Part shown: positions 19,379 through 64,000 of the stretch, in pieces
Numbering within the stretch: position 1 is the first letter of the stretch
Layout of the letters: each line of letters opens with the position of its first letter
NCBI GenBank assembly: GCA_031266345.1
Contig: JAISBD010000004.1
Coordinates: 10,103 to 74,102 of the forward strand
Reading direction: 5' to 3'
DNA from: Puniceicoccales bacterium
GTDB lineage: Bacteria > Verrucomicrobiota > Verrucomicrobiia > Opitutales > JAIRKQ01
Length of the DNA stretch: 64,000 bases
The notes under the pieces: model-generated
Databases searched by the model: none
What the model saw: only the letters and a program-made list of their open reading frames with translations
Told to the model about the DNA's origin: nothing
Position numbers and translations under genes: made by a program

Positions 19379-19674
19379 TTGAAATGTTGTCCATGCGTTT
19401 TCCCTTTTCCCTTAGAATAAAGGAAGGAACCATTGCACTAGCCGTTGCCATATTAAATGTGTAGCATAAATTCCCTAAAAAGCAAGTAAGTAGATTTTTA
19501 GGGGCAGAACTCATAAAAAAATCAACAGGCACGCCCACTAATTTTTAAGGCAAGTACACCCTGGTACAAAATCAGAAAAATAGCGCTGAGCAACCCGAAA
19601 GTGAATTATTTTACTTGCAAAGCGTGGCATAAATTTTACAAAATTGTAGCATAAATTTTACAATTTTGAACGCC

Positions 19675-53386: not shown

Positions 53387-53653
53387 TTAGTGATCATCGT
53401 AGTGCCCTTCGCAGCGTTCAAAATATACAGTGTCATCCTCAATGGTGTATACCAATCGATTTTTCCTATCGATGTGCCGAGACCATGTCTCATTATCCTT
53501 ATGTCTCAATCGCTCTGGGTGGGCTAAGCCACCCCGCGGCTCCGCCAATATAATTTCCATAAGCCTATCTATTTTGTCAGCTATTTGAGAATTTAGTTCA
53601 CAAAATCTATTATACTCTTTGTCAAATTGTTTGGAATATTTACGCTTGAACAT
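53387..53653 (-). CDS. yoeB: Txe/YoeB-family toxin
   Basis: KI..L...I...P..G...PERL.H.....WSR.ID..NRLVY...CEGHY. Confidence 0.9.
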   Translation of the reverse strand: MFKRKYSKQFDKEYNRFCELNSQIADKIDRLMEIILAEPRGGLAHPERLRHKDNETWSRHIDRKNRLVYTIEDDTVYFERCEGHYDDH

Positions 53654-53993
53654 TAGAGAGACCCCTCCTATCATTAACTGCTTTTCTAATTTTCCTTAAA
53701 TGCTCCAAAGCCTCCTCATCGGAGAAAAAAGTTTCAAGCTCTCCCCTTGCATCTTCCGCCATAGTTTCCTCATGTATTTTTTCGAGGACATCCACGTTAT
53801 AGGTTTGGCCGCTGCCGTCCTGGTAGAAGTGGATCTTGGATAGGTCGTGACCCTTCAAGGCGTGGCGGAGCATGCCCGCCAAATATTGAGCAATGGTGAC
53901 GTTCTCTTCCTTCGCTTTAACCCTGATTTTCCGAAACACCCCCCTATCGAGGTCAGCCTCGCTCAAAATAAAACTCTTCGCTGCGCTAGTCAT
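53640..53993 (-). CDS. Putative antitoxin (RHH-like N-terminus, acidic RelB-like C-terminus)
   Basis: Directly upstream of and overlapping the toxin by 14 nt; DLDRGVFRKIRVKAKEENVTIAQY and ARGELETFFSDEEALEHL. Confidence 0.7.
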   Translation of the reverse strand: MTSAAKSFILSEADLDRGVFRKIRVKAKEENVTIAQYLAGMLRHALKGHDLSKIHFYQDGSGQTYNVDVLEKIHEETMAEDARGELETFFSDEEALEHLRKIRKAVNDRRGLSNVQA

Positions 53994-54535
53994 AGTGGTG
54001 ACATATGATAGCAAGCTGGGAGGGAAGTCAATGAAAAAATAATCATAGCTTTGAAAGCTTTCAGAAAAGCACCTGAAACTAACACCGAAAAGAGGTAGAA
54101 GGAGCCTCGCACAAAATTTGCCCCATCGCCCACCCTGGCATGTGTCACAGGCCATTTGAATGTCATTTGGGAAAAAGGCAAATCGCAATCTGCCATTTGA
54201 GAATCGCAATAGGCAATATTTGTCGGGCGGCAGTGGAGTCTGATGTGCATGGCTAGGAATGGGTTATTAGTTATTTTCGTTTAGCTCAGGGGTTTAATTC
54301 AGGGTGGGCCTTTTCCGCTGCTTCTCGCACTCTTTTTGCTCTAAAACAGGGTTCATCCAACTCAAATTTCCCCAATTTCCTTTCCTGCCTTTCCAATGAA
54401 TGCTCCGATATTTCCTCCCTAAATTCCTTGTAATGGCGATTTATTGCGCTGCGGCGCTTGTGTATTTTGAATTTGGCAAAGCGGGATAATAGTCTTGACA
54501 AATTTTTTAGCTGGATTGGTATGTGTGGCGTAGGC

Positions 54536-56157: not shown

Positions 56158-57951
56158 ATGTTTGATTTTTTTTACCAATTAGAAAGAGAGATGGCGCGGC
56201 TAAAAAAGCAACGCAGAGACAACAACATTGTGGTAGCAAGCAGATTACTGCGGATTGTATTGGGAGAATTTTTCAAGGCGCTATCCGAGCAGCTTCTCTG
56301 TTTGTTTTACAAATTAGTACACCCTTTCACTTGGAGGAGGAAAAGTAGCGGTGAAGTAACCGCCAAGGATAGCAATGATAAACTCAAGATGGCGGTGCTG
56401 ATTGCGGGTGGAATGGGTGACGCCTTAATGTATAGCTCAGTAATAAAAGCGCTGTCAAAGCGCATAGGATGCGACCACATAATAGGCGTGGTAAGTAATC
56501 GCAAAGATCAAGTTGACGTTTTACGGTTTATTTTTAGCGGTTTTCCCTTTGTAAATGTCTTGGAAAAAAGTAAGTTTTTACTTCAACGTTTCGCCAATAG
56601 AAAAATATTCTACGATGTGGAAATTGGGCTCAACAAAGTTACCACAATAATGAATTGCAATCACGAACTTGTTAAGCTCAAATCCCCGTGGCTAAGTAAC
56701 TTTTGTGAAAAAAATGAAAAATTTAAACTAAACAATAAGAAATTTTTTGAGGGACCTTCGGTTCACGCTCTTGTAAATCAATGGGCTATTTTGCGCGAAA
56801 TGACGAGGCTGCAGGTAGCGGATCAGTGTAAATTGCTGGGCATTGACTACGCTACTCACACATTCCTAAATTTAGATCCCGAGGGATTCAGCTTCTTGGA
56901 GAGCGCTGGATTGCGGGGAGTGAAATACATAACCCTTCAGCGGGGTGTTGGGGTTTGGGACAAGGATAAAGTTGAACTTTGGGATGGAGATGAAAAGTGC
57001 TCCACCGGTGCGGTCGCCACTAGTACAAGGATATGGCCGGAGAGGCATTATGAAAAATTTATAAAATTGTTTCACGAAGCTTATCCCGACGTAAAAATAA
57101 TACAAGTCGGCGCCGACCAAGATCTTGGAATACCATTTTCCGGGATAGACTTGAACTTGGTGGACCAAACTTCCCTGCAAGAATCGGCGGCGTTACTAAA
57201 GTATGCAATATTTCACCTAGACGGTGATGGTGGCCTGGTTCACATGAAGAGGCTTTTAAATGGCCGTTCCATTGTGCTCCTGGGAACAACTCCCGCCAAC
57301 CTGATCGGATATCCTGAAAATATTAATATTGCCGGCCCAGGGTGTAAAAGTTGGTGCGAATGGACAACCAGTGAGTGGCATAGAAAATGCTTGCGCGGCT
57401 TCAAAGAGGCACCTTGCATGGCTTCGATCACACCGGAAATGGTGATGGATGGCGCTCGTAAAATAATTGATAATTTGAAGGAACACTCCTACGAATCCGT
57501 GGATTGCGACCTCCAGGAAGATGAAATTGGGGATTTCGTCGGGAAACAGTTTCAAAATAGGGACATCGTCATCGCAGACATATTCAACAAGAGCGGCTGG
57601 GATTTGGCCCTCAAATTACGGAAAAATTTTAGCAACATTACGATGTTCAGGCTCGATTTTCACTATGATTCTTTTTCAAAAGCGGAGGAACTTGGCCTTA
57701 AACTGGAGTACGGGTGTCTCTACAACATCTCCATGGCAGATGATTCCTGCGATGCCGTAATTTGGCAAAATGGAGACCAGTCCGAGATGCGATTGGAATA
57801 CATTTTAGGGGAATTATTCCGCATAGTGAAGCCCGGCGGACTGCTGATCATTTCCGGCATTACCATTGAAAGCGCAACTTTATCCGGCTTTGGTTTGCCC
57901 AGCACTCCGAAAAAAGTCCATGTGCTAAAAAAGCAACTCGCCAAAATTTAG
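56158..57951 (+). CDS. GT9 (heptosyltransferase-like) glycosyltransferase fused to a class I methyltransferase-like C-terminus
   Basis: GGMGDAL, R.WP..Y, TSLQE, D.DGGLVH, PCM.SI.PE.V; then DDSCDAV and E.FRIVKPGG. Confidence 0.75.
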   Translation: MFDFFYQLEREMARLKKQRRDNNIVVASRLLRIVLGEFFKALSEQLLCLFYKLVHPFTWRRKSSGEVTAKDSNDKLKMAVLIAGGMGDALMYSSVIKALSKRIGCDHIIGVVSNRKDQVDVLRFIFSGFPFVNVLEKSKFLLQRFANRKIFYDVEIGLNKVTTIMNCNHELVKLKSPWLSNFCEKNEKFKLNNKKFFEGPSVHALVNQWAILREMTRLQVADQCKLLGIDYATHTFLNLDPEGFSFLESAGLRGVKYITLQRGVGVWDKDKVELWDGDEKCSTGAVATSTRIWPERHYEKFIKLFHEAYPDVKIIQVGADQDLGIPFSGIDLNLVDQTSLQESAALLKYAIFHLDGDGGLVHMKRLLNGRSIVLLGTTPANLIGYPENINIAGPGCKSWCEWTTSEWHRKCLRGFKEAPCMASITPEMVMDGARKIIDNLKEHSYESVDCDLQEDEIGDFVGKQFQNRDIVIADIFNKSGWDLALKLRKNFSNITMFRLDFHYDSFSKAEELGLKLEYGCLYNISMADDSCDAVIWQNGDQSEMRLEYILGELFRIVKPGGLLIISGITIESATLSGFGLPSTPKKVHVLKKQLAKI

Positions 57952-58157: not shown

Positions 58158-60857
58158 ATGAAGGCAATTAATAATCCTCAGGAGCAAGTTAGTGGCAATG
58201 CGCAATTGGAGCCAAAGAGCTCCCCCAATCGCCCAATCTTAGATAGAACTCTCTCGGCTAATTACTTCCAAGATACAACGCAACAAACCTCATCGGTGGA
58301 GATTAACGATCGAAATGTTGCAAAGCAATGGGCAGTTGATGCGGTGCATTCCCTTGCAAGTGGGTGGCGGAAAAATGTTTTAAAATTTTGCCACCACTTT
58401 GGCCACAGGGCGGTGCTGTGGGTTTTAAACAGACTAGCCCCAGTAACCTTGGAGAGTTGTACCCCTGAGAATATTGAAAAATTAGCAAACAAAGATAAGA
58501 AAACACTGCTGCAGTGTGCCTCTGGGGAGGCCATAGGTCAATTGCTTTCCAGGGGAGAAAGGGGCAAGCAAGTTTTTTCAAGCCTATTTAGCACCGTGGA
58601 ACCAGCGGATGTTGCATTGGCAAATAAGTGTCGCCCCTATCTCGATAATTTTCCTAATTTGAAGCTCGAATTTTCAAACAAAATAGGCACCTATCTCTGC
58701 GATTTGCCCCTTGAACAACTTAGGCAATCGCCGAATTCGGACAGGAAGTTTTGGCTGGAAAATGTCTCCGAAGAGAGTTTGCAGAGGCTCATCGGAGGAA
58801 CACACAAGGATAGGCAAGTTTTTTCAAGCCTATTTAATGCGGTAAATTCAGAAGATGTGATTTTAGCGGATAAGTGCCTAAATTGCTGCACCGCTGCCAA
58901 CGTTGAAAATTTATCGAATGACGATAAAAGGGCATTGCTGAGAAACGCTTCCGAAGAGAGCTTGCAAAGGCTTCTCAACGGAGGACAAGAGGGTAGGGTA
59001 GTTTTTCAGAGCTTGCTCAGAGCTACGGGACCGGGAGATGCGGCTTTGAGGGCTAAGTATTTGGAATATTATCTGCCGAGCAGCCTTGAAAATTTATCGA
59101 ATGACGATAAAAGGGCACTGCTGAGAAATGCTTCCGAAGAGAGCTTGCAAAGGCTTCTCAGCGGAGGACAAGAGGGTAGGGTAGTTTTTCAAAGCCTATT
59201 CCAGGCCTTGAACCCGGAAGATGCAGCTTTGGCAGATAGGTGCTTTTCTTGCCTTGACCGTTTTCCCGGTTTGAAGCACTTGAAGTCTGAATTTTTAAGC
59301 GAAACAAACGCCTATCTTGGAAACTTGACCGCCGAGAAGGCTAGGTTACTCCCGGGCGCGGACAGGAGGGCCATATTGAAAAATGCTTCCGAAGAAGTTT
59401 TGCAAGATCTTGCTGATAAAGTTCCCGTGGGCAGGGAAATTTTTCAAACTTTACTCAATGCTTTGAGGCCCACGGATCAAGATTTGCAGCAGAAATGCTT
59501 ACCCCATGTGCAAAGGGTCACGTCGCAGTCCATGCAAGCGGCAGCTTCCACGGCCCTGGAAAATTGGCGCAAAACAAATCCAAGCAAAAGGGCGAATGGT
59601 GAAAAAACATTCCTCGATAGTCGTAAAATGTGGCAGGGTATTGCAACCGCGATGGCGAGTAGCTGCTTCGATGAATCGGGAAAAATAGATCTCCTTAGGG
59701 CCAGAGCACTGAAATTAGCTGTGGAAGATGCCACTTTTTTCCAAGGCAAACCTTTTTCTGCGATCCCAGCCATGCCCTACATGTGCAAACAGATGTCCTG
59801 CACATTGGGGCATCTCATAAATGGTGCCGAAAGAAAGGATAGCTTGGCGGAGGTTTTGAACGAAGCAAATCAGCTCCAAGATGGTCAGCTTGGGACAAAT
59901 GGGCGGAAAATTTTAGCTACTATGGCCGAAAATCAAGGATTTTCCCTGGGGCCGGGGGTGGCCATTCTGACCTCCTTTTTTTCACCGCACAGGCAGCGAG
60001 TCCTCCCCTCATGCACAATGAATTCCACAATTAATGCCGAAATGCGCAATAACCCCGACCGCCTAGCGAGGATGTATAGGCAAATATTGACCGGCGATAC
60101 ATTTAATTTGCCAAGCGGATACCTCGTCCATCAGCAATCGATAGGTGATAGGCACATTGCCATCGACCTAAGCAATGGGTATGAAGTAAAAAAAGACCAA
60201 ATCCTCGACCCTAAATCCCAAAATATTCAGGCAACGGCGGGCATATTTCGGGACAGTAAGAATGCGAATGGGCTGCAAATTTTGATACACGACCTCAATG
60301 ATGTATTTTTCGCCAACTTTTTCCAATCTTCTAAGTTTGGGAACAGGGGCCTGCAAGGCTATGGCGACAATAATTATGGCACAACGTTTATATATTTTGG
60401 CGTGAGGGGGTATGATAAAACATATTCTCCGAAAATTGATATTGCTGAGGAGGCCATTGAGTCCAACATAAGGACGCTGCAGGATTATGCGGCGAAGCAA
60501 AAAGCTGCCGGCATGCACTACATGCGCGTGTGTACGCGGCAGGAAAGTTCCGCCCACGATGAAAATATAGACATTGATGCGCTGCTAAATTTGAAGCTCC
60601 ATGGGATGAAACCCGGCGAGCTGCACGTCATCGGTGATAGGAACTGGGGAAGTGGTGATGGGAGGTCCATGCACTTGGCCGTTAAAAAACATGAAACGCC
60701 TCCCCCCGCGTATTCCTTTCAAACCGTATATTCCGACGGCAAAATCAGCGCCTTAAACAGGCCTGACATTAAATCTTTCGAAGTTTACGACACCTCCGCT
60801 AGTAAAACCTACGGCCAATGGAAAATTGAACAAGATGGCAAAATAATTAGTGCTTGA
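58158..60857 (+). CDS. 899-aa protein with five ~60-aa helical repeats and a C-terminal papain-like domain; candidate effector
   Basis: Repeats containing NASEE.LQ.L and VF.SL; RQRVLPSC, SAHDENI, IGDRNWG. Confidence 0.7.
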   Translation: MKAINNPQEQVSGNAQLEPKSSPNRPILDRTLSANYFQDTTQQTSSVEINDRNVAKQWAVDAVHSLASGWRKNVLKFCHHFGHRAVLWVLNRLAPVTLESCTPENIEKLANKDKKTLLQCASGEAIGQLLSRGERGKQVFSSLFSTVEPADVALANKCRPYLDNFPNLKLEFSNKIGTYLCDLPLEQLRQSPNSDRKFWLENVSEESLQRLIGGTHKDRQVFSSLFNAVNSEDVILADKCLNCCTAANVENLSNDDKRALLRNASEESLQRLLNGGQEGRVVFQSLLRATGPGDAALRAKYLEYYLPSSLENLSNDDKRALLRNASEESLQRLLSGGQEGRVVFQSLFQALNPEDAALADRCFSCLDRFPGLKHLKSEFLSETNAYLGNLTAEKARLLPGADRRAILKNASEEVLQDLADKVPVGREIFQTLLNALRPTDQDLQQKCLPHVQRVTSQSMQAAASTALENWRKTNPSKRANGEKTFLDSRKMWQGIATAMASSCFDESGKIDLLRARALKLAVEDATFFQGKPFSAIPAMPYMCKQMSCTLGHLINGAERKDSLAEVLNEANQLQDGQLGTNGRKILATMAENQGFSLGPGVAILTSFFSPHRQRVLPSCTMNSTINAEMRNNPDRLARMYRQILTGDTFNLPSGYLVHQQSIGDRHIAIDLSNGYEVKKDQILDPKSQNIQATAGIFRDSKNANGLQILIHDLNDVFFANFFQSSKFGNRGLQGYGDNNYGTTFIYFGVRGYDKTYSPKIDIAEEAIESNIRTLQDYAAKQKAAGMHYMRVCTRQESSAHDENIDIDALLNLKLHGMKPGELHVIGDRNWGSGDGRSMHLAVKKHETPPPAYSFQTVYSDGKISALNRPDIKSFEVYDTSASKTYGQWKIEQDGKIISA
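58903..59191 (+). repeat. Near-identical ~106-bp intragenic direct repeat, period 183 bp
   Basis: 58903-59008 versus 59086-59191 (TTGAAAATTTATCGAATGACGATAAAAGGGCA...GTAGTTTTTCA). Confidence 0.92.
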
Positions 60858-60941
60858 TGAGGGGTGAAAATTTAATTTTAGAAACAAAAATTTTACTTTT
60901 TTTTACTGTGGATATTTTTTTGGTAAAAAAATGCTAATTCC

Positions 60942-61271
60942 CTAGCGCCTCCTGGGTGCCCCTATCAGCTTTTTTATGAACTCCGCAGGAAGCTTATTTC
61001 TAATTAAAGCACCTCCTATGTGCCTCTCTCTTGCATTGGGATCCAATCCGAAATTATAGTACAATGTCCTGCCCTGGGCTTATATCCTCCGAACTTCCAC
61101 AGTTTGCGCACAGTCTCCAGTAACAAAGTGTGCTAAAGCATGGAAGCCGCATTGTCCGTCATCTGGAACATGAAAAATGCGAAAGGTAGTATCGCCCACA
61201 GCTAGGGGATCATCGATTAAACCAACAATGCGGCATACCAGGTGGCAGCGATCCAGGAGCGGCTTCTTACT
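60942..61271 (-). pseudogene. Decayed OTU-type deubiquitinase domain
   Basis: Manual translation FRIFHVPDDGQCGFHALAHFVTGD...VEVRRI*; no ATG in the frame, in-frame TAA at 61080-61082. Confidence 0.7.
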
Positions 61272-62037
61272 CTAAATCTAGCATTTCCTTAAGTGCATTT
61301 ATCGTTTCCCCTACTCCAGCAGCACTACGACTTATTCTATCTGCGCTGTGAGGATGTATCCATATCGAAACTGAAACTTTATCCCCCTCACGATTAACAT
61401 AATGCATTGTACCATGCGCACTATCCCCCGCCTTTATTTCTATTTTTAATTTTGCTTGATTGTCAAAAAGGTACTCTGCAAGGCCTTTGAAATCTTCTGA
61501 TTTTATCATTCCTGCTGTTCCAATCTTATTTAACCAATTTTCTATCTTTTCATCTGCAATGCGAGTTGGAGGTAACATTTCCTCTGGAGGCGGCGGTGGC
61601 GGTCTGTCAACGCCTTTCGCTTTGCCTTTTTTTCGGAAAAGTGGTCCTTCAGCTGGAAGTACCGGAGGCGGCGGCGGCGGCAAATCTGGGCAGCGTATCC
61701 CACTAACTTCAATATTTCCTTCACTATTCCTGGTAGTTTCAATAGTATAACTCCTATGATCTCTCTCAAAGGTAATTGAGAAATCTCCTTGCGCATCACT
61801 TGTAAGTTTTTTCCGAATCGCACTTTCAATTGCAGCATCGGTAAAACCAGCGCTATTTGCACTTTTTCTAATACTAGCGGTTTTAAAGTAAATAACCGGC
61901 CCCTCTGTACCTTCGCCAATTAGTACACCTCTTCGAGGTATACTTTGCGCTACACTTCTAGTGCCAAAAGTAGCTTCTGCTTGCTGCCCTTGAACCGGTG
62001 TTTGATTTCCTACTGGCTCTATATTTTGTGAACTCAT
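61267..62037 (-). CDS. Hypothetical polyproline-containing protein, candidate effector
   Basis: 256-aa ORF, S/Q/N-rich N-terminus, LPPPPPP and RPPPPPP, promoter TTGAAA-16-TATACT. Confidence 0.7.
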   Translation of the reverse strand: MSSQNIEPVGNQTPVQGQQAEATFGTRSVAQSIPRRGVLIGEGTEGPVIYFKTASIRKSANSAGFTDAAIESAIRKKLTSDAQGDFSITFERDHRSYTIETTRNSEGNIEVSGIRCPDLPPPPPPVLPAEGPLFRKKGKAKGVDRPPPPPPEEMLPPTRIADEKIENWLNKIGTAGMIKSEDFKGLAEYLFDNQAKLKIEIKAGDSAHGTMHYVNREGDKVSVSIWIHPHSADRISRSAAGVGETINALKEMLDLE

Positions 62038-62197
62038 AATGGACAGAGTATATGAAAAAGGTACGCTGTTTCAAGCTTTTTTATAAAAAAATTCATAGTT
62101 GAAGAACTCTATTTAAAGTTAGCTCGGGAAGTGTAGGCATGCCTATTTAATCCGACTACATGTCACTCTCTGTTTTTTCCTTTTCCAAAGAAAAAAA

Positions 62198-62497
62198 TTA
62201 ATTTTCAATGTTTTCGCCTTCAATCTCAAGCTCGATAATTCTGCATAGAATTGAATTGCCTGTTATTCTATCCTCTGCGCTATAAGAATACCTTACATCT
62301 ACTAGTCTGTCTTCTTCACAAAAAAAATACCGCCAATTACCATTGAATATAATACCCTGATCTTCCACAAACCTATTACTTATCCTTAGCCGTTCAGCTT
62401 TTGTAAGCTTGCTATGGAATTTATCTGCAACGTCCCGCGGGGCGGCACATGAAATTATTCCCGTTGAAAAAACTTCAACCATACCGCTGCTATCCAT
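62198..62497 (-). CDS. Hypothetical protein (99 aa)
   Basis: ATG preceded by AAGGAAG; TTGACA upstream at 62587-62592. Confidence 0.5.
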   Translation of the reverse strand: MDSSGMVEVFSTGIISCAAPRDVADKFHSKLTKAERLRISNRFVEDQGIIFNGNWRYFFCEEDRLVDVRYSYSAEDRITGNSILCRIIELEIEGENIEN

Positions 62498-62523
62498 AGT
62501 GCTTCCTTGTTTAAATTAGGGAA

Positions 62524-62554
62524 TTAGGGAAATAATCACATGATTTTTCCCTAA
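62524..62554. promoter_or_regulatory. Inverted repeat (operator or 5' UTR hairpin) upstream of the 99-aa ORF
   Basis: TTAGGGAAA(T)AATCA-CA-TGATT-TTTCCCTAA. Confidence 0.45.
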
Positions 62555-62764
62555 CTATGGATTGCATAGCTTAATTATTTTGATATTGTCAATAAAAAAC
62601 CAATCTTTTCTTACACAGGAGATATCTTTTCTTGCTCCATGCAAAAATTTTGCTCGACTTAAACTCCTTGTCATCGGTTTGGATAAATTTTCTAGCGCCT
62701 CATGGGTGTCTTTGCTAACTCTTCTATGAGTTTCTCCCCTGGTGCGTAAACATTTCCTAGAATT

Positions 62765-64000
62765 TTATCTCCCAGTGGCGTGGCGAGCGGCATAGGAATT
62801 ATCAACATTAAGGCCGGGACTGTAGCTTGCCCACGCATCTGGCTCTATGATCATCTTCGTCGGGCTTTGCTCAAGCGCTTCCACTCTAGCTTTAAGCCCC
62901 CTTGCCCGTGACATCGCCGCAGAGAGCTGTGGCCTCGTAAGCCCGCATTCCCCGTACATTGCCTCCAATTCTTTCAAATCAAGGGCCCTGATTACATTTC
63001 GCATTTCACTATCTATGAAGGGGGGCATGCCATAATTCCTTAGAGAAACTCCGTCAATGGCATATTCTCTTTGTCCATCGAATTTGACTAGTTGATCGGG
63101 GATGGAATCAGCAAAATTCCGCGGCGGTTTCGTTGGAAACGATAGGTCGTGGTCGATGCCAACTGGAAGATTTCCCACATACATTACGTTATCCCCATGT
63201 CTGTCCATCTGCCCAGTCAATATGTCCATGAGCTGCAACCATGTTTCGCGGCGAATGAATTCATTGTCGTAAATCAATATGTCTCTACCAGTACGCTCTT
63301 CCTCATCAATCACACTGCCAATAGTCTGTCCTTCTAAATATTCCATGGCAATGCAAGCTTTTCCATTTGCTTCTGCCGCTGATACCTCGGCTATCACGTG
63401 GGGTACTTCTACGCCTATAGATCTCCCCACTTCTGTAACCATACCCTGCAACTTTGAGGTGGCCAGATTACACCTGTAATTCCCACTTGCTACTCCGGTA
63501 ATTCCTTGAGACAGAGCTGCATTTGCGATGCCTCCTTCATCTCCCGAATTGAATATCTTCACCACTATCGGTTCTTGTCCATTTTGATCCCTATGTATAA
63601 GGCACGCGGTACCGCAGTTCCCTGAGCCCAAAACTATTGCCGGAAGGAAGGACATTTTTTCCAGGCCTGATTGACCATTTATTTTGGCATCTAGCCATAC
63701 TTGCGACTTTTCGATTTGCTGAGCTACGGTGCGACAAGCGGGAATATTGTCGCATTCATTTATTGAACGCGGGGGGAAGGGTGTTCGTTGTATCATTTTC
63801 GTGTTGCCACCCAATTGGGTTAATACCGCTTTTAGCGCCAATATTTCATCCTGTGACAGGTCATTTTGCCGCATAAATTTCTCCACATCACCCAACGCAG
63901 AGCTTATTTCACCCATGCGTGAATTTATTTCCCTACGACTTACTGTTCGATGGGTAAAATTAACAATGGGTGTGACGATGGCGGCAACCCTCGATCTTCT
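62765..64000 (-). CDS. PI3/PI4-kinase-superfamily (atypical kinase) protein, 5'-truncated by window edge; candidate effector
   Basis: LGSGNCG, VVKIF, MEYLEG, DILTGQMDRHGDN, GIDHDLSF; frame open from 63916 to 64000. Confidence 0.78.
   Translation of the reverse strand, partial: RRSRVAAIVTPIVNFTHRTVSRREINSRMGEISSALGDVEKFMRQNDLSQDEILALKAVLTQLGGNTKMIQRTPFPPRSINECDNIPACRTVAQQIEKSQVWLDAKINGQSGLEKMSFLPAIVLGSGNCGTACLIHRDQNGQEPIVVKIFNSGDEGGIANAALSQGITGVASGNYRCNLATSKLQGMVTEVGRSIGVEVPHVIAEVSAAEANGKACIAMEYLEGQTIGSVIDEEERTGRDILIYDNEFIRRETWLQLMDILTGQMDRHGDNVMYVGNLPVGIDHDLSFPTKPPRNFADSIPDQLVKFDGQREYAIDGVSLRNYGMPPFIDSEMRNVIRALDLKELEAMYGECGLTRPQLSAAMSRARGLKARVEALEQSPTKMIIEPDAWASYSPGLNVDNSYAARHATGR

Follow-up and report, generated by a model that had tools for sequence, protein, structure and literature searches.

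The 64,000-nucleotide stretch of Puniceicoccales DNA considered here (the window) spans positions 10103-74102 of contig C19, one of the contigs C1 to C26 of this genome (G000), and its last part, window positions 58158-64000, carries four open reading frames (ORFs), A, B, C and D. These genes probably encode type III effectors directed at a eukaryotic host, as part of a repertoire specific to their lineage. Such a repertoire would be that of a genome-reduced symbiont of the Puniceicoccales (Verrucomicrobiota) and would most likely be delivered by a non-flagellar type III secretion system (T3SS). Its members would be modular proteins, in which a leader devoid of signal peptide and repeated modules bear one of several catalytic heads. 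The first head, a new papain-fold cysteine (iso)peptidase present in A and four paralogs, would cut or deconjugate host proteins. The second, a PI4KII-like kinase present in D and about four paralogs, would probably phosphorylate host phosphoinositides and rewrite membrane lipid identity, while the third, an OTU deubiquitinase that is intact in relatives and decayed behind B in this genome, would remove ubiquitin in the host cell. Ubiquitin and phosphoinositides are both eukaryotic targets. A preliminary description of this DNA had proposed a host-directed effector set; its main lines are supported, with translocation and host targets as what we infer from them, but the genes do not form a single island and ORF C is not the remnant it was taken for. 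The relatives compared comprise 40 genomes, namely 22 sister genomes of the small-genome family f1 and 18 from other families of the order; G- and L-numbers designate their genomes and loci.

Gene A (58158-60857, plus strand) encodes an 899-aa protein composed of a polar N-terminal leader, about five helical repeats of 61-85 aa (roughly residues 96-490), two of which are nearly identical, and a 405-aa C-terminal papain-like domain, designated X (residues 495-899; 59640-60857, plus strand). The repeat protein with a papain-like domain that had been announced is thereby recovered. Neither Pfam nor NCBIfam returned a significant match for A, no peptidase family appeared in Pfam even at E ≤ 1, and the repeat region gave only sub-threshold Pfam matches (E 0.003-0.24), none of them informative. 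In X, residues Q613 (59994-59996), C619 (60012-60014), H800 (60555-60557) and N829-W830 (60642-60647), all encoded on the plus strand, follow the Gln-x5-Cys, His, Asn-Trp order of the calpain/papain-like peptidases of clan CA, and the Gln six residues ahead of the Cys fits the oxyanion Gln upstream of a catalytic Cys. The five X copies of this genome share the motifs PHRQxxLP(S/T)C, HxENIDI and GDRNW, with a mean column identity of 62% in their alignment. A search of 1.84 billion cluster representatives with an X profile retrieved 147 proteins at E ≤ 0.001, including 70 at E ≤ 1e-30, and among 58 aligned sequences the Gln is conserved in 58, the Cys in 52, the His and the Asn in 54 each and the Trp in 46.

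The AlphaFold (AF2) model of X, built on the alignment of these sequences, reached a predicted local distance difference test (pLDDT) of 93.2 and a predicted template modelling score (pTM) of 0.93. In this model, the Cys opens helix 125-137 whereas the His and Asn lie on consecutive strands (305-311 and 328-337, domain numbering), so that both the sequence motifs and the modelled secondary structure follow the catalytic arrangement of clan CA. The best structure matches in VIA, an exhaustive aligner, were the calpain-1 core (Z 6.4, 216 aligned residues, root-mean-square deviation (rmsd) 5.0), calpain-9 (Z 6.3) and SpeB (Z 6.1), followed by staphopains, interpain, ZUFSP, IdeS, UfSP and cathepsin B. 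The bacterial papain-fold effectors SpvD, AvrPphB, Lpg2622 and OspI also appear among the matches listed, and about 36 of the 50 listed are papain-fold peptidases, judged by their titles. All these matches are weak, and the best Z of 6.4 lies below the Z of 7-8 that unmatched models typically reach in VIA. Furthermore, Foldseek returned nothing at E ≤ 0.001 for X, its weak rows including IdeS/Mac-1 and SERA5. Because the Z values are weak, the papain assignment leans on three concordant lines, namely the motif pattern, where it falls in the secondary structure and the predominance of papain folds among the matches listed. In contrast to known clan CA peptidases, X has no sequence-family match: none of the 58 members matches any Pfam family at E ≤ 0.001, a sequence-profile search of the Protein Data Bank (PDB) gave nothing significant, and neither A nor X falls into the calpain family (Peptidase_C2) or another curated peptidase family. 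The domain is also large (about 400 aa), with an extra helical N-terminal part of about 110 residues, and is fused to lineage-specific repeats. From its motifs and its model, X reads as a new, divergent family of papain-fold cysteine (iso)peptidases lying outside the calpain family.

Gene D (62765-64000, minus strand) is cut by the end of the window, within which its ORF covers 62765-63916 and encodes 383 aa. On the contig, the full frame spans 607 aa and extends to within 65 bases of the contig end; alignment with the paralogs points to the Met at codon 12 of this frame as the likely start. Its N-terminal leader modules, rich in beta structure, fall beyond the window and match nothing in Pfam or NCBIfam, while a helical module and the PI4KII-like kinase domain lie inside. 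The kinase domain combines an ATP-site Lys (K120), a DRHxxN-type catalytic loop (D238-R239-H240-G241-D242-N243) and a metal-binding Asp loop (D255-H256-D257, within IDHD), numbered on the 383-aa in-window part. A database search retrieved 29 proteins, consisting of the genome's own copies, metagenome proteins, proteins from metagenome-assembled genomes (MAGs) named Puniceicoccales bacterium and one protein of a Holosporaceae bacterium. Across 28 aligned sequences, the ATP-site Lys, the catalytic-loop Arg and Asn and the Asp-His-Asp loop are invariant, and D238, the first Asp of the catalytic loop, is conserved in at least 90%; for the residues of the Lys, DRHGDN and IDHD motifs together, all are invariant except two (D237 and P250), each kept in at least 90%.

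Although a PDB sequence-profile search with the kinase gave nothing significant, the AF2 model of D (pLDDT 89.2) has a fold closest to that of the PI3/PI4-kinase lipid kinases. Its best Foldseek match is human PI4KII-alpha (E 4e-6), which also leads in VIA (4hnd, Z 16.1, 249 aligned residues, rmsd 5.1; 4pla, Z 14.0), ahead of the lipid kinases Vps34, PI4KIII-beta and PI3K-alpha at Z of about 10. Like PI4KII-alpha, D retains the ATP-binding Lys, the catalytic loop and the metal-binding Asp. However, it is only 14-16% identical to the human enzyme, with DRHGDN as catalytic loop and IDHD as metal loop, is bacterial, carries leader and repeat modules ahead of the kinase and remains below the Pfam cut-off, as its in-window part scores 17.0 bits (E 0.0058) against PI3_PI4_kinase (PF00454), for a cut-off of 27.1. 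On the basis of its motifs and model, D is predicted to be a PI4KII-like kinase with an intact active site, in agreement with the PI-kinase-like protein of the preliminary description.

The PI3K-like fold includes protein kinases as well, and D and its paralogs might instead be secreted protein kinases like CtkA of H. pylori or of the Fam20/HipA type. CtkA (Z 12.6), Fam20 (Z 11.8) and HipA-type kinases (Z 9.2-9.8) indeed match D in VIA, which makes a protein substrate possible, and the sub-threshold Pfam score points in the same direction. Nevertheless, PI4KII-alpha stands 3.5 Z above CtkA, aligns over more residues (249) than any other match and ranks first with both aligners; the catalytic loop is of the DRHxxN type, and 4 of the 29 homologs carry a precomputed PF00454 annotation. 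Protein kinases are for these reasons the less probable interpretation, albeit one with an appreciable chance, and the predicted fold and motifs make a lipid the likelier substrate of D. Phosphoinositide kinases are known among bacterial effectors, such as LepB, MavQ and LegA5 of Legionella, OpiA of Francisella and Risk1 of Rickettsia, which are delivered by type IV or type VI secretion rather than type III. Their likeness to D lies in the proposed role, that is, making host phosphoinositides to shape the niche of the symbiont; LepB, MavQ and the other effector kinases were absent from the 50 matches listed in each fold search with D, although they may still be related to it. The accessible part of a review on the use of host PI4K by pathogens names no bacterial PI4KII-like effector (PMC13573033).

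Gene B (61267-62037, minus strand) encodes 256 aa, with a polar leader, a small N-terminal domain, two proline runs at residues 120-125 (61663-61680) and 146-151 (61585-61602), both on the minus strand, and a C-terminal domain. It corresponds to the predicted polyproline protein, matches no Pfam or NCBIfam family and has no paralog in this genome. An OTU remnant had also been predicted and does exist, as a decayed OTU-like domain at 60945-61271 (minus strand), in the spacer past the stop of B and in a frame that differs from that of B. The evidence comes from relative G022, in which the gene downstream of the homolog of C encodes a 421-aa protein with proline runs and a C-terminal domain containing HVPNDGNCLF. 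In tblastn, residues 105-198 of this protein align with the C-terminal part of B (E 4e-6) and the alignment continues across the B stop codon, residues 232-298 match 61089-61259 in another frame (E 1e-4), including HVPDDGQCGF, and residues 397-421 match 60996-61067 weakly (E 1.1). The remnant consists of two pieces on the minus strand, 61083-61271 with the Cys loop HVPDDGQCGF and 60945-61079 with the possible end of a His loop, both bounded by in-frame stops and separated by a gap where about 100 codons of the intact G022 homolog are absent. Owing to the change of frame, the stops and the missing codons, this is not an intact OTU domain (PF02338) with its Cys and His loops, and Pfam matched neither piece. 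The spacer sequence reads as the dead tail of an OTU-type gene, of which B would be the truncated front part.

The assignment to OTU rests on the homologs, seven sequences in which the Cys loop DGNCLF is invariant and is followed by a conserved FIVNHF stretch and a RHIEAL end. For the intact G022 homolog, Pfam gave no match at E ≤ 1, and PDB profile matches to OTUD3 (E 0.1) and to a viral OTU (E 0.75), in a list of E 0.1-1.1, were sub-threshold, while in the Atlas OTU clusters accounted for 22 of the 30 feature hits and for 7 of the 9 rows from the structure search (TM 0.51-0.63). OTU deubiquitinases of intracellular bacteria include the chlamydial ChlaOTU and the Lot proteins of Legionella. 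The DGxC Cys loop, found in the remnant and in the intact relatives, and the proline-rich linkers are reminiscent of these enzymes, whereas the domain is dead here and the intact relatives fall short of the Pfam OTU threshold. Two OTU-type proteins of relatives, at L033:1-1343 (minus strand, G013) and L034:1010-1345 (minus strand, G020), have a Pro/Ser-rich leader followed by two adjacent hydrophobic stretches rich in Gly, Ala, Ile and Val. By eye, these stretches resemble the bilobed membrane anchor of chlamydial inclusion-membrane proteins; B lacks them.

Gene C (62198-62497, minus strand) encodes a conserved, acidic protein of 99 aa (pI 4.7) that matches no Pfam or NCBIfam family. ORF C had been considered as the OTU remnant, an assignment that was rejected since C has homologs in 9 of the 22 sister genomes and the remnant sits in the spacer after B. 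The homologs have open frames of 84-148 aa (105-148 aa except for one partial match) and one lies directly upstream of an OTU-type gene in each of G022, G013 and G020. It may be guessed from this arrangement that C is a dedicated partner, perhaps a secretion chaperone, of the OTU-type proteins. A complex prediction for B and C gave scores of 0.01, 0.73 and 0.00 against a mark of 0.32, and counts neither for nor against such a partnership.

The genes of this region recur elsewhere in the genome and, instead of the single effector island first proposed, the locus is one of at least seven scattered loci. Five X copies are found, on C19 (gene A), on C10, twice on C18 and on C1, and about five kinase copies, on C19 (D), C18, C15 and C8, with a distant fifth also on C8. 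The parts ahead of these heads are shared between the two families: an N-terminal module (MNA.NDI...) precedes both kinase heads (C19 and C18:4782) and an X head (C18:1706), with a fragment of it at the end of C11, and a helical module of about 80 aa is repeated ahead of both head types. Twelve related genes cover 23,388 bp in all, which is 2.4% of the genome. Four contig ends (the start of C18, the end of C1, the start of C11 and the end of C19) fall inside genes of the X and kinase families, suggesting that the repeated modules probably break the assembly and that the true copy number may be higher. In the relatives, several X and kinase copies contain internal stops and several lie in tandem. 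The multiple copies, the interrupted ones and the OTU remnant agree with the ongoing gene birth and decay that had been proposed.

Both families are largely restricted to the small-genome lineage. X is present in 17 of the 22 sister genomes and in none of the 18 other families, while the kinase profile matches 15 of the 22 sister genomes and, outside f1, one family of the 18, there only weakly over 37 residues (E 3.5e-7). The preliminary description had allowed that the genes might be conserved in free-living relatives; by these counts, they are not conserved in relatives with larger genomes. Named X homologs come only from Puniceicoccales MAGs. A kinase scan of species genomes found 24 loci, of which 17 belong to Puniceicoccales MAGs, one to a Holosporaceae bin and six, distant, to other bacteria. 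The Holosporaceae-binned homolog (L049) may reflect either gene transfer between co-resident symbionts or mis-binning. In addition, a kinase gene is paired with a downstream gene of 204-230 aa at G000:C15:76293-78835 and at L049:2572-4796, with identities of 36% and 40%.

The genome measures 959,105 bp in 26 contigs (91.8% complete, 0.07% contamination), and all 22 sister genomes have 0.7-0.9 Mb. The preliminary description had noted no secretion apparatus in the window and had left open that the genome might be devoid of an injection system; genes of a non-flagellar T3SS are nevertheless present on five other contigs. C16 carries a 448-aa ORF in the gatekeeper (yopN) position, TyeA, a SycN-like gene (a weak match, E 0.001, below the cut-off), YscX, a tetratricopeptide repeat (TPR) protein that is yscY-like, and SctV. 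C4 carries SctJ, K, L, N and O and a weak HpaP-like match in the SctP position, C24 carries SctS, T and U, C9 a secretin beside a CesT-type chaperone, and C26 two SctF needle matches. FHIPEP (SctV/FlhA) was found in 22 of the 23 f1 genomes; a flagellar origin of this gene was rejected, as its neighbours are TyeA and YscX and flagellin had no match in this genome. No VirB4 or TssC was found in any of the 23 f1 genomes, nor VirD4 in this genome. As in T3SSs of the Ysc/chlamydia type, the gene in the yopN position, tyeA, the weak sycN-like gene, yscX, the yscY-like TPR gene and sctV stand in one row and the other core genes in separate clusters. The difference is that the system occurs here across a whole family of roughly 0.9-Mb genomes and that no translocon genes were identified. 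A literature search, with subscription journals outside its reach, found no description of the present genes or of a T3SS in Puniceicoccales. The portions available of two sources report non-flagellar T3SSs in Verrucomicrobia (PMC3459982) and place the gain of the T3SS before the last common chlamydial ancestor (PMC9816063).

Two further secretins are encoded at C24:36766-40640 and C23:7982-9988. One of them has a GspD N0 domain and lies beside a GspE-type ATPase on C24, which suggests that this 0.96-Mb genome has kept a type II system or one resembling a type IV pilus.

The leaders of the encoded proteins show no hydrophobic segment of the Sec type. The highest hydropathy over 12 residues within the first 60 reaches 0.07 in A, 0.89 in B and 1.03 in D, as compared with 1.8-2.5 for four exported proteins of the same genome, and 52% of the first 25 residues of A and B are Ser, Thr, Asn, Gln or Pro. 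The claimed absence of a Sec signal thus withstands what is a crude test, consisting of a hydropathy and composition count only, set against four exported controls. Taken together, the maintenance of an injectisome in such small genomes, the heads of kinds whose known targets are eukaryotic, the Sec-free leaders and the lineage-specific expansion, shuffling and decay of the genes argue for host-directed type III effectors.

Several observations weigh against this conclusion, besides the weak fold matches of X, the modest Pfam score of D, its likeness to protein kinases and the simplicity of the leader test. Some free-living bacteria, Brevifollis among them, harbour distant relatives of the kinase, 26-33% identical over the core. 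YscX is present in 21 of the 22 sister genomes but also outside f1, in 4 of the order's 18 other families, including one with a 4.4-Mb genome, implying that the T3SS machine is older than family f1. Furthermore, two genomes of genus g3 (G008 and G010) have FHIPEP and YscX without matches to X, the kinase, gene C or a piece of the giant gene described below, so that the machine is independent of the X and kinase genes; genus g3 may use a different set of effectors. Lastly, no direct link between the genes of the locus and the T3SS was found.

These last two points would also suit proteins that are directed at the host but exported otherwise, through a TolC-dependent type I system, type II secretion, vesicles or lysis, with the T3SS serving other substrates. 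The genome does encode a TolC-like OEP protein on C15, in addition to the GspD and GspE of C24. Export by type II secretion would, however, need a Sec-type leader, which A, B and D lack, and Pfam showed none of the repeats or signals that characterise type I substrates. N-terminal modules shared among different catalytic heads, as seen here, are on the contrary typical of N-terminally targeted T3SS substrates, and another export route therefore appears rather improbable. The same architecture, with common N-terminal parts and swapped C-terminal heads, is also that of polymorphic toxins directed against bacteria, in which the heads would be toxins and small neighbours such as C immunity proteins. 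Small conserved neighbours do exist, both C by the OTU-type genes and the 204-230-aa gene downstream of the C15 and L049 kinases. Yet the substrates of OTU and PI-kinase heads, ubiquitin and phosphoinositides, are not known to occur in bacteria; C stands upstream of its partner gene rather than downstream, the type VI secretion marker TssC is missing from the f1 genomes, and the small genome, at 0.9 Mb, suggests a bacterium that lives sheltered inside cells, all of which makes antibacterial toxins very improbable.

It is similarly hard to regard the genes as ordinary cytoplasmic enzymes, or as mostly dead genes nearing loss, in spite of the copies with stops and of the OTU domain that is dead here. 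The catalytic residues of X, apart from the Trp, are kept in 52-58 of the 58 sequences, the kinase motif residues show the conservation given above across 28 sequences, the long frames remain open, and multiple copies persist across two genera of genomes otherwise shorn of most genes. The chance left to this interpretation is slight, and a set of host-directed type III effectors remains the reading that best accounts for the locus.

The region differs only mildly in composition from the rest of the genome. It had been described as AT-rich with long spacers, which is accurate in direction but overstated, since its GC content is 44.8% against 48.1% genome-wide and the spacers between the four genes measure 409, 160 and 267 bp, the longest containing the OTU pseudogene. 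Directly upstream of A, a 597-aa protein is encoded at window positions 56158-57951 (plus strand, 43.8% GC), with weak matches to heptosyltransferase (GT9) and methyltransferase families in Pfam and NCBIfam, all below cut-off; possibly this is another enzyme of host interaction or of the envelope. Further upstream, a YoeB-type toxin gene (53387-53674, minus strand; Pfam E 6e-17) is overlapped by an upstream ORF of 189 aa (53640-54209, minus strand), which could encode its antitoxin. The source names of two OTU-type proteins of relatives (P0179 and P0181) are RelE/YoeB-like, and both proteins carry a matching middle segment.

A giant gene of 3433 aa lies at window positions 19666-29967 (plus strand), with only a weak match to DUF3638 (E 1.2e-5, below cut-off). 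A 600-aa piece of it has paralogs on C10 (85% identity, in a 3555-codon frame) and on C25 (in a 5220-codon frame), and the three giant genes would take about 3.8% of the genome. Of the 22 sister genomes, 13 contain this piece, as does one further family with small genomes, but it was not found in the larger genomes searched. The cassette genes and the three giant genes (3,400-5,200 codons) would together occupy over 6% of the genome.

Effector repertoires are well known in chlamydiae, Legionella and rickettsiae, while to our knowledge very little is known of how verrucomicrobial endosymbionts handle their hosts. The locus yields several candidates in this respect: a papain-fold enzyme family without a curated family, represented by 147 of the 1.84 billion proteins of the library searched, a bacterial family of PI4KII-like kinases, and OTU-type genes caught in the middle of their decay. 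In genomes so small, every retained paralog is likely to matter. The locus also shows that a strongly reducing genome can still expand and reshuffle its host-interaction genes. Tentatively, and with more doubt than for the effector role itself, it could be proposed that this family of verrucomicrobial endosymbionts, with genomes of about 0.9 Mb, keeps a recombining cassette system, in which common leader and repeat modules are recombined with alternative heads under constant duplication and decay. The heads would be unclassified calpain-like peptidases, OTU deubiquitinases, and kinases that would be the first of the PI4KII-like type to be put forward as type III effectors. Nuclear and cytoplasmic symbionts of protists form a verrucomicrobial cluster described in the accessible part of a further source (PMC8204192), which mentions an unpublished genome of roughly 1 Mb for one of them. 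If the bacteria studied here belong to that cluster, the set could be a toolkit for life in a protist cell or nucleus.

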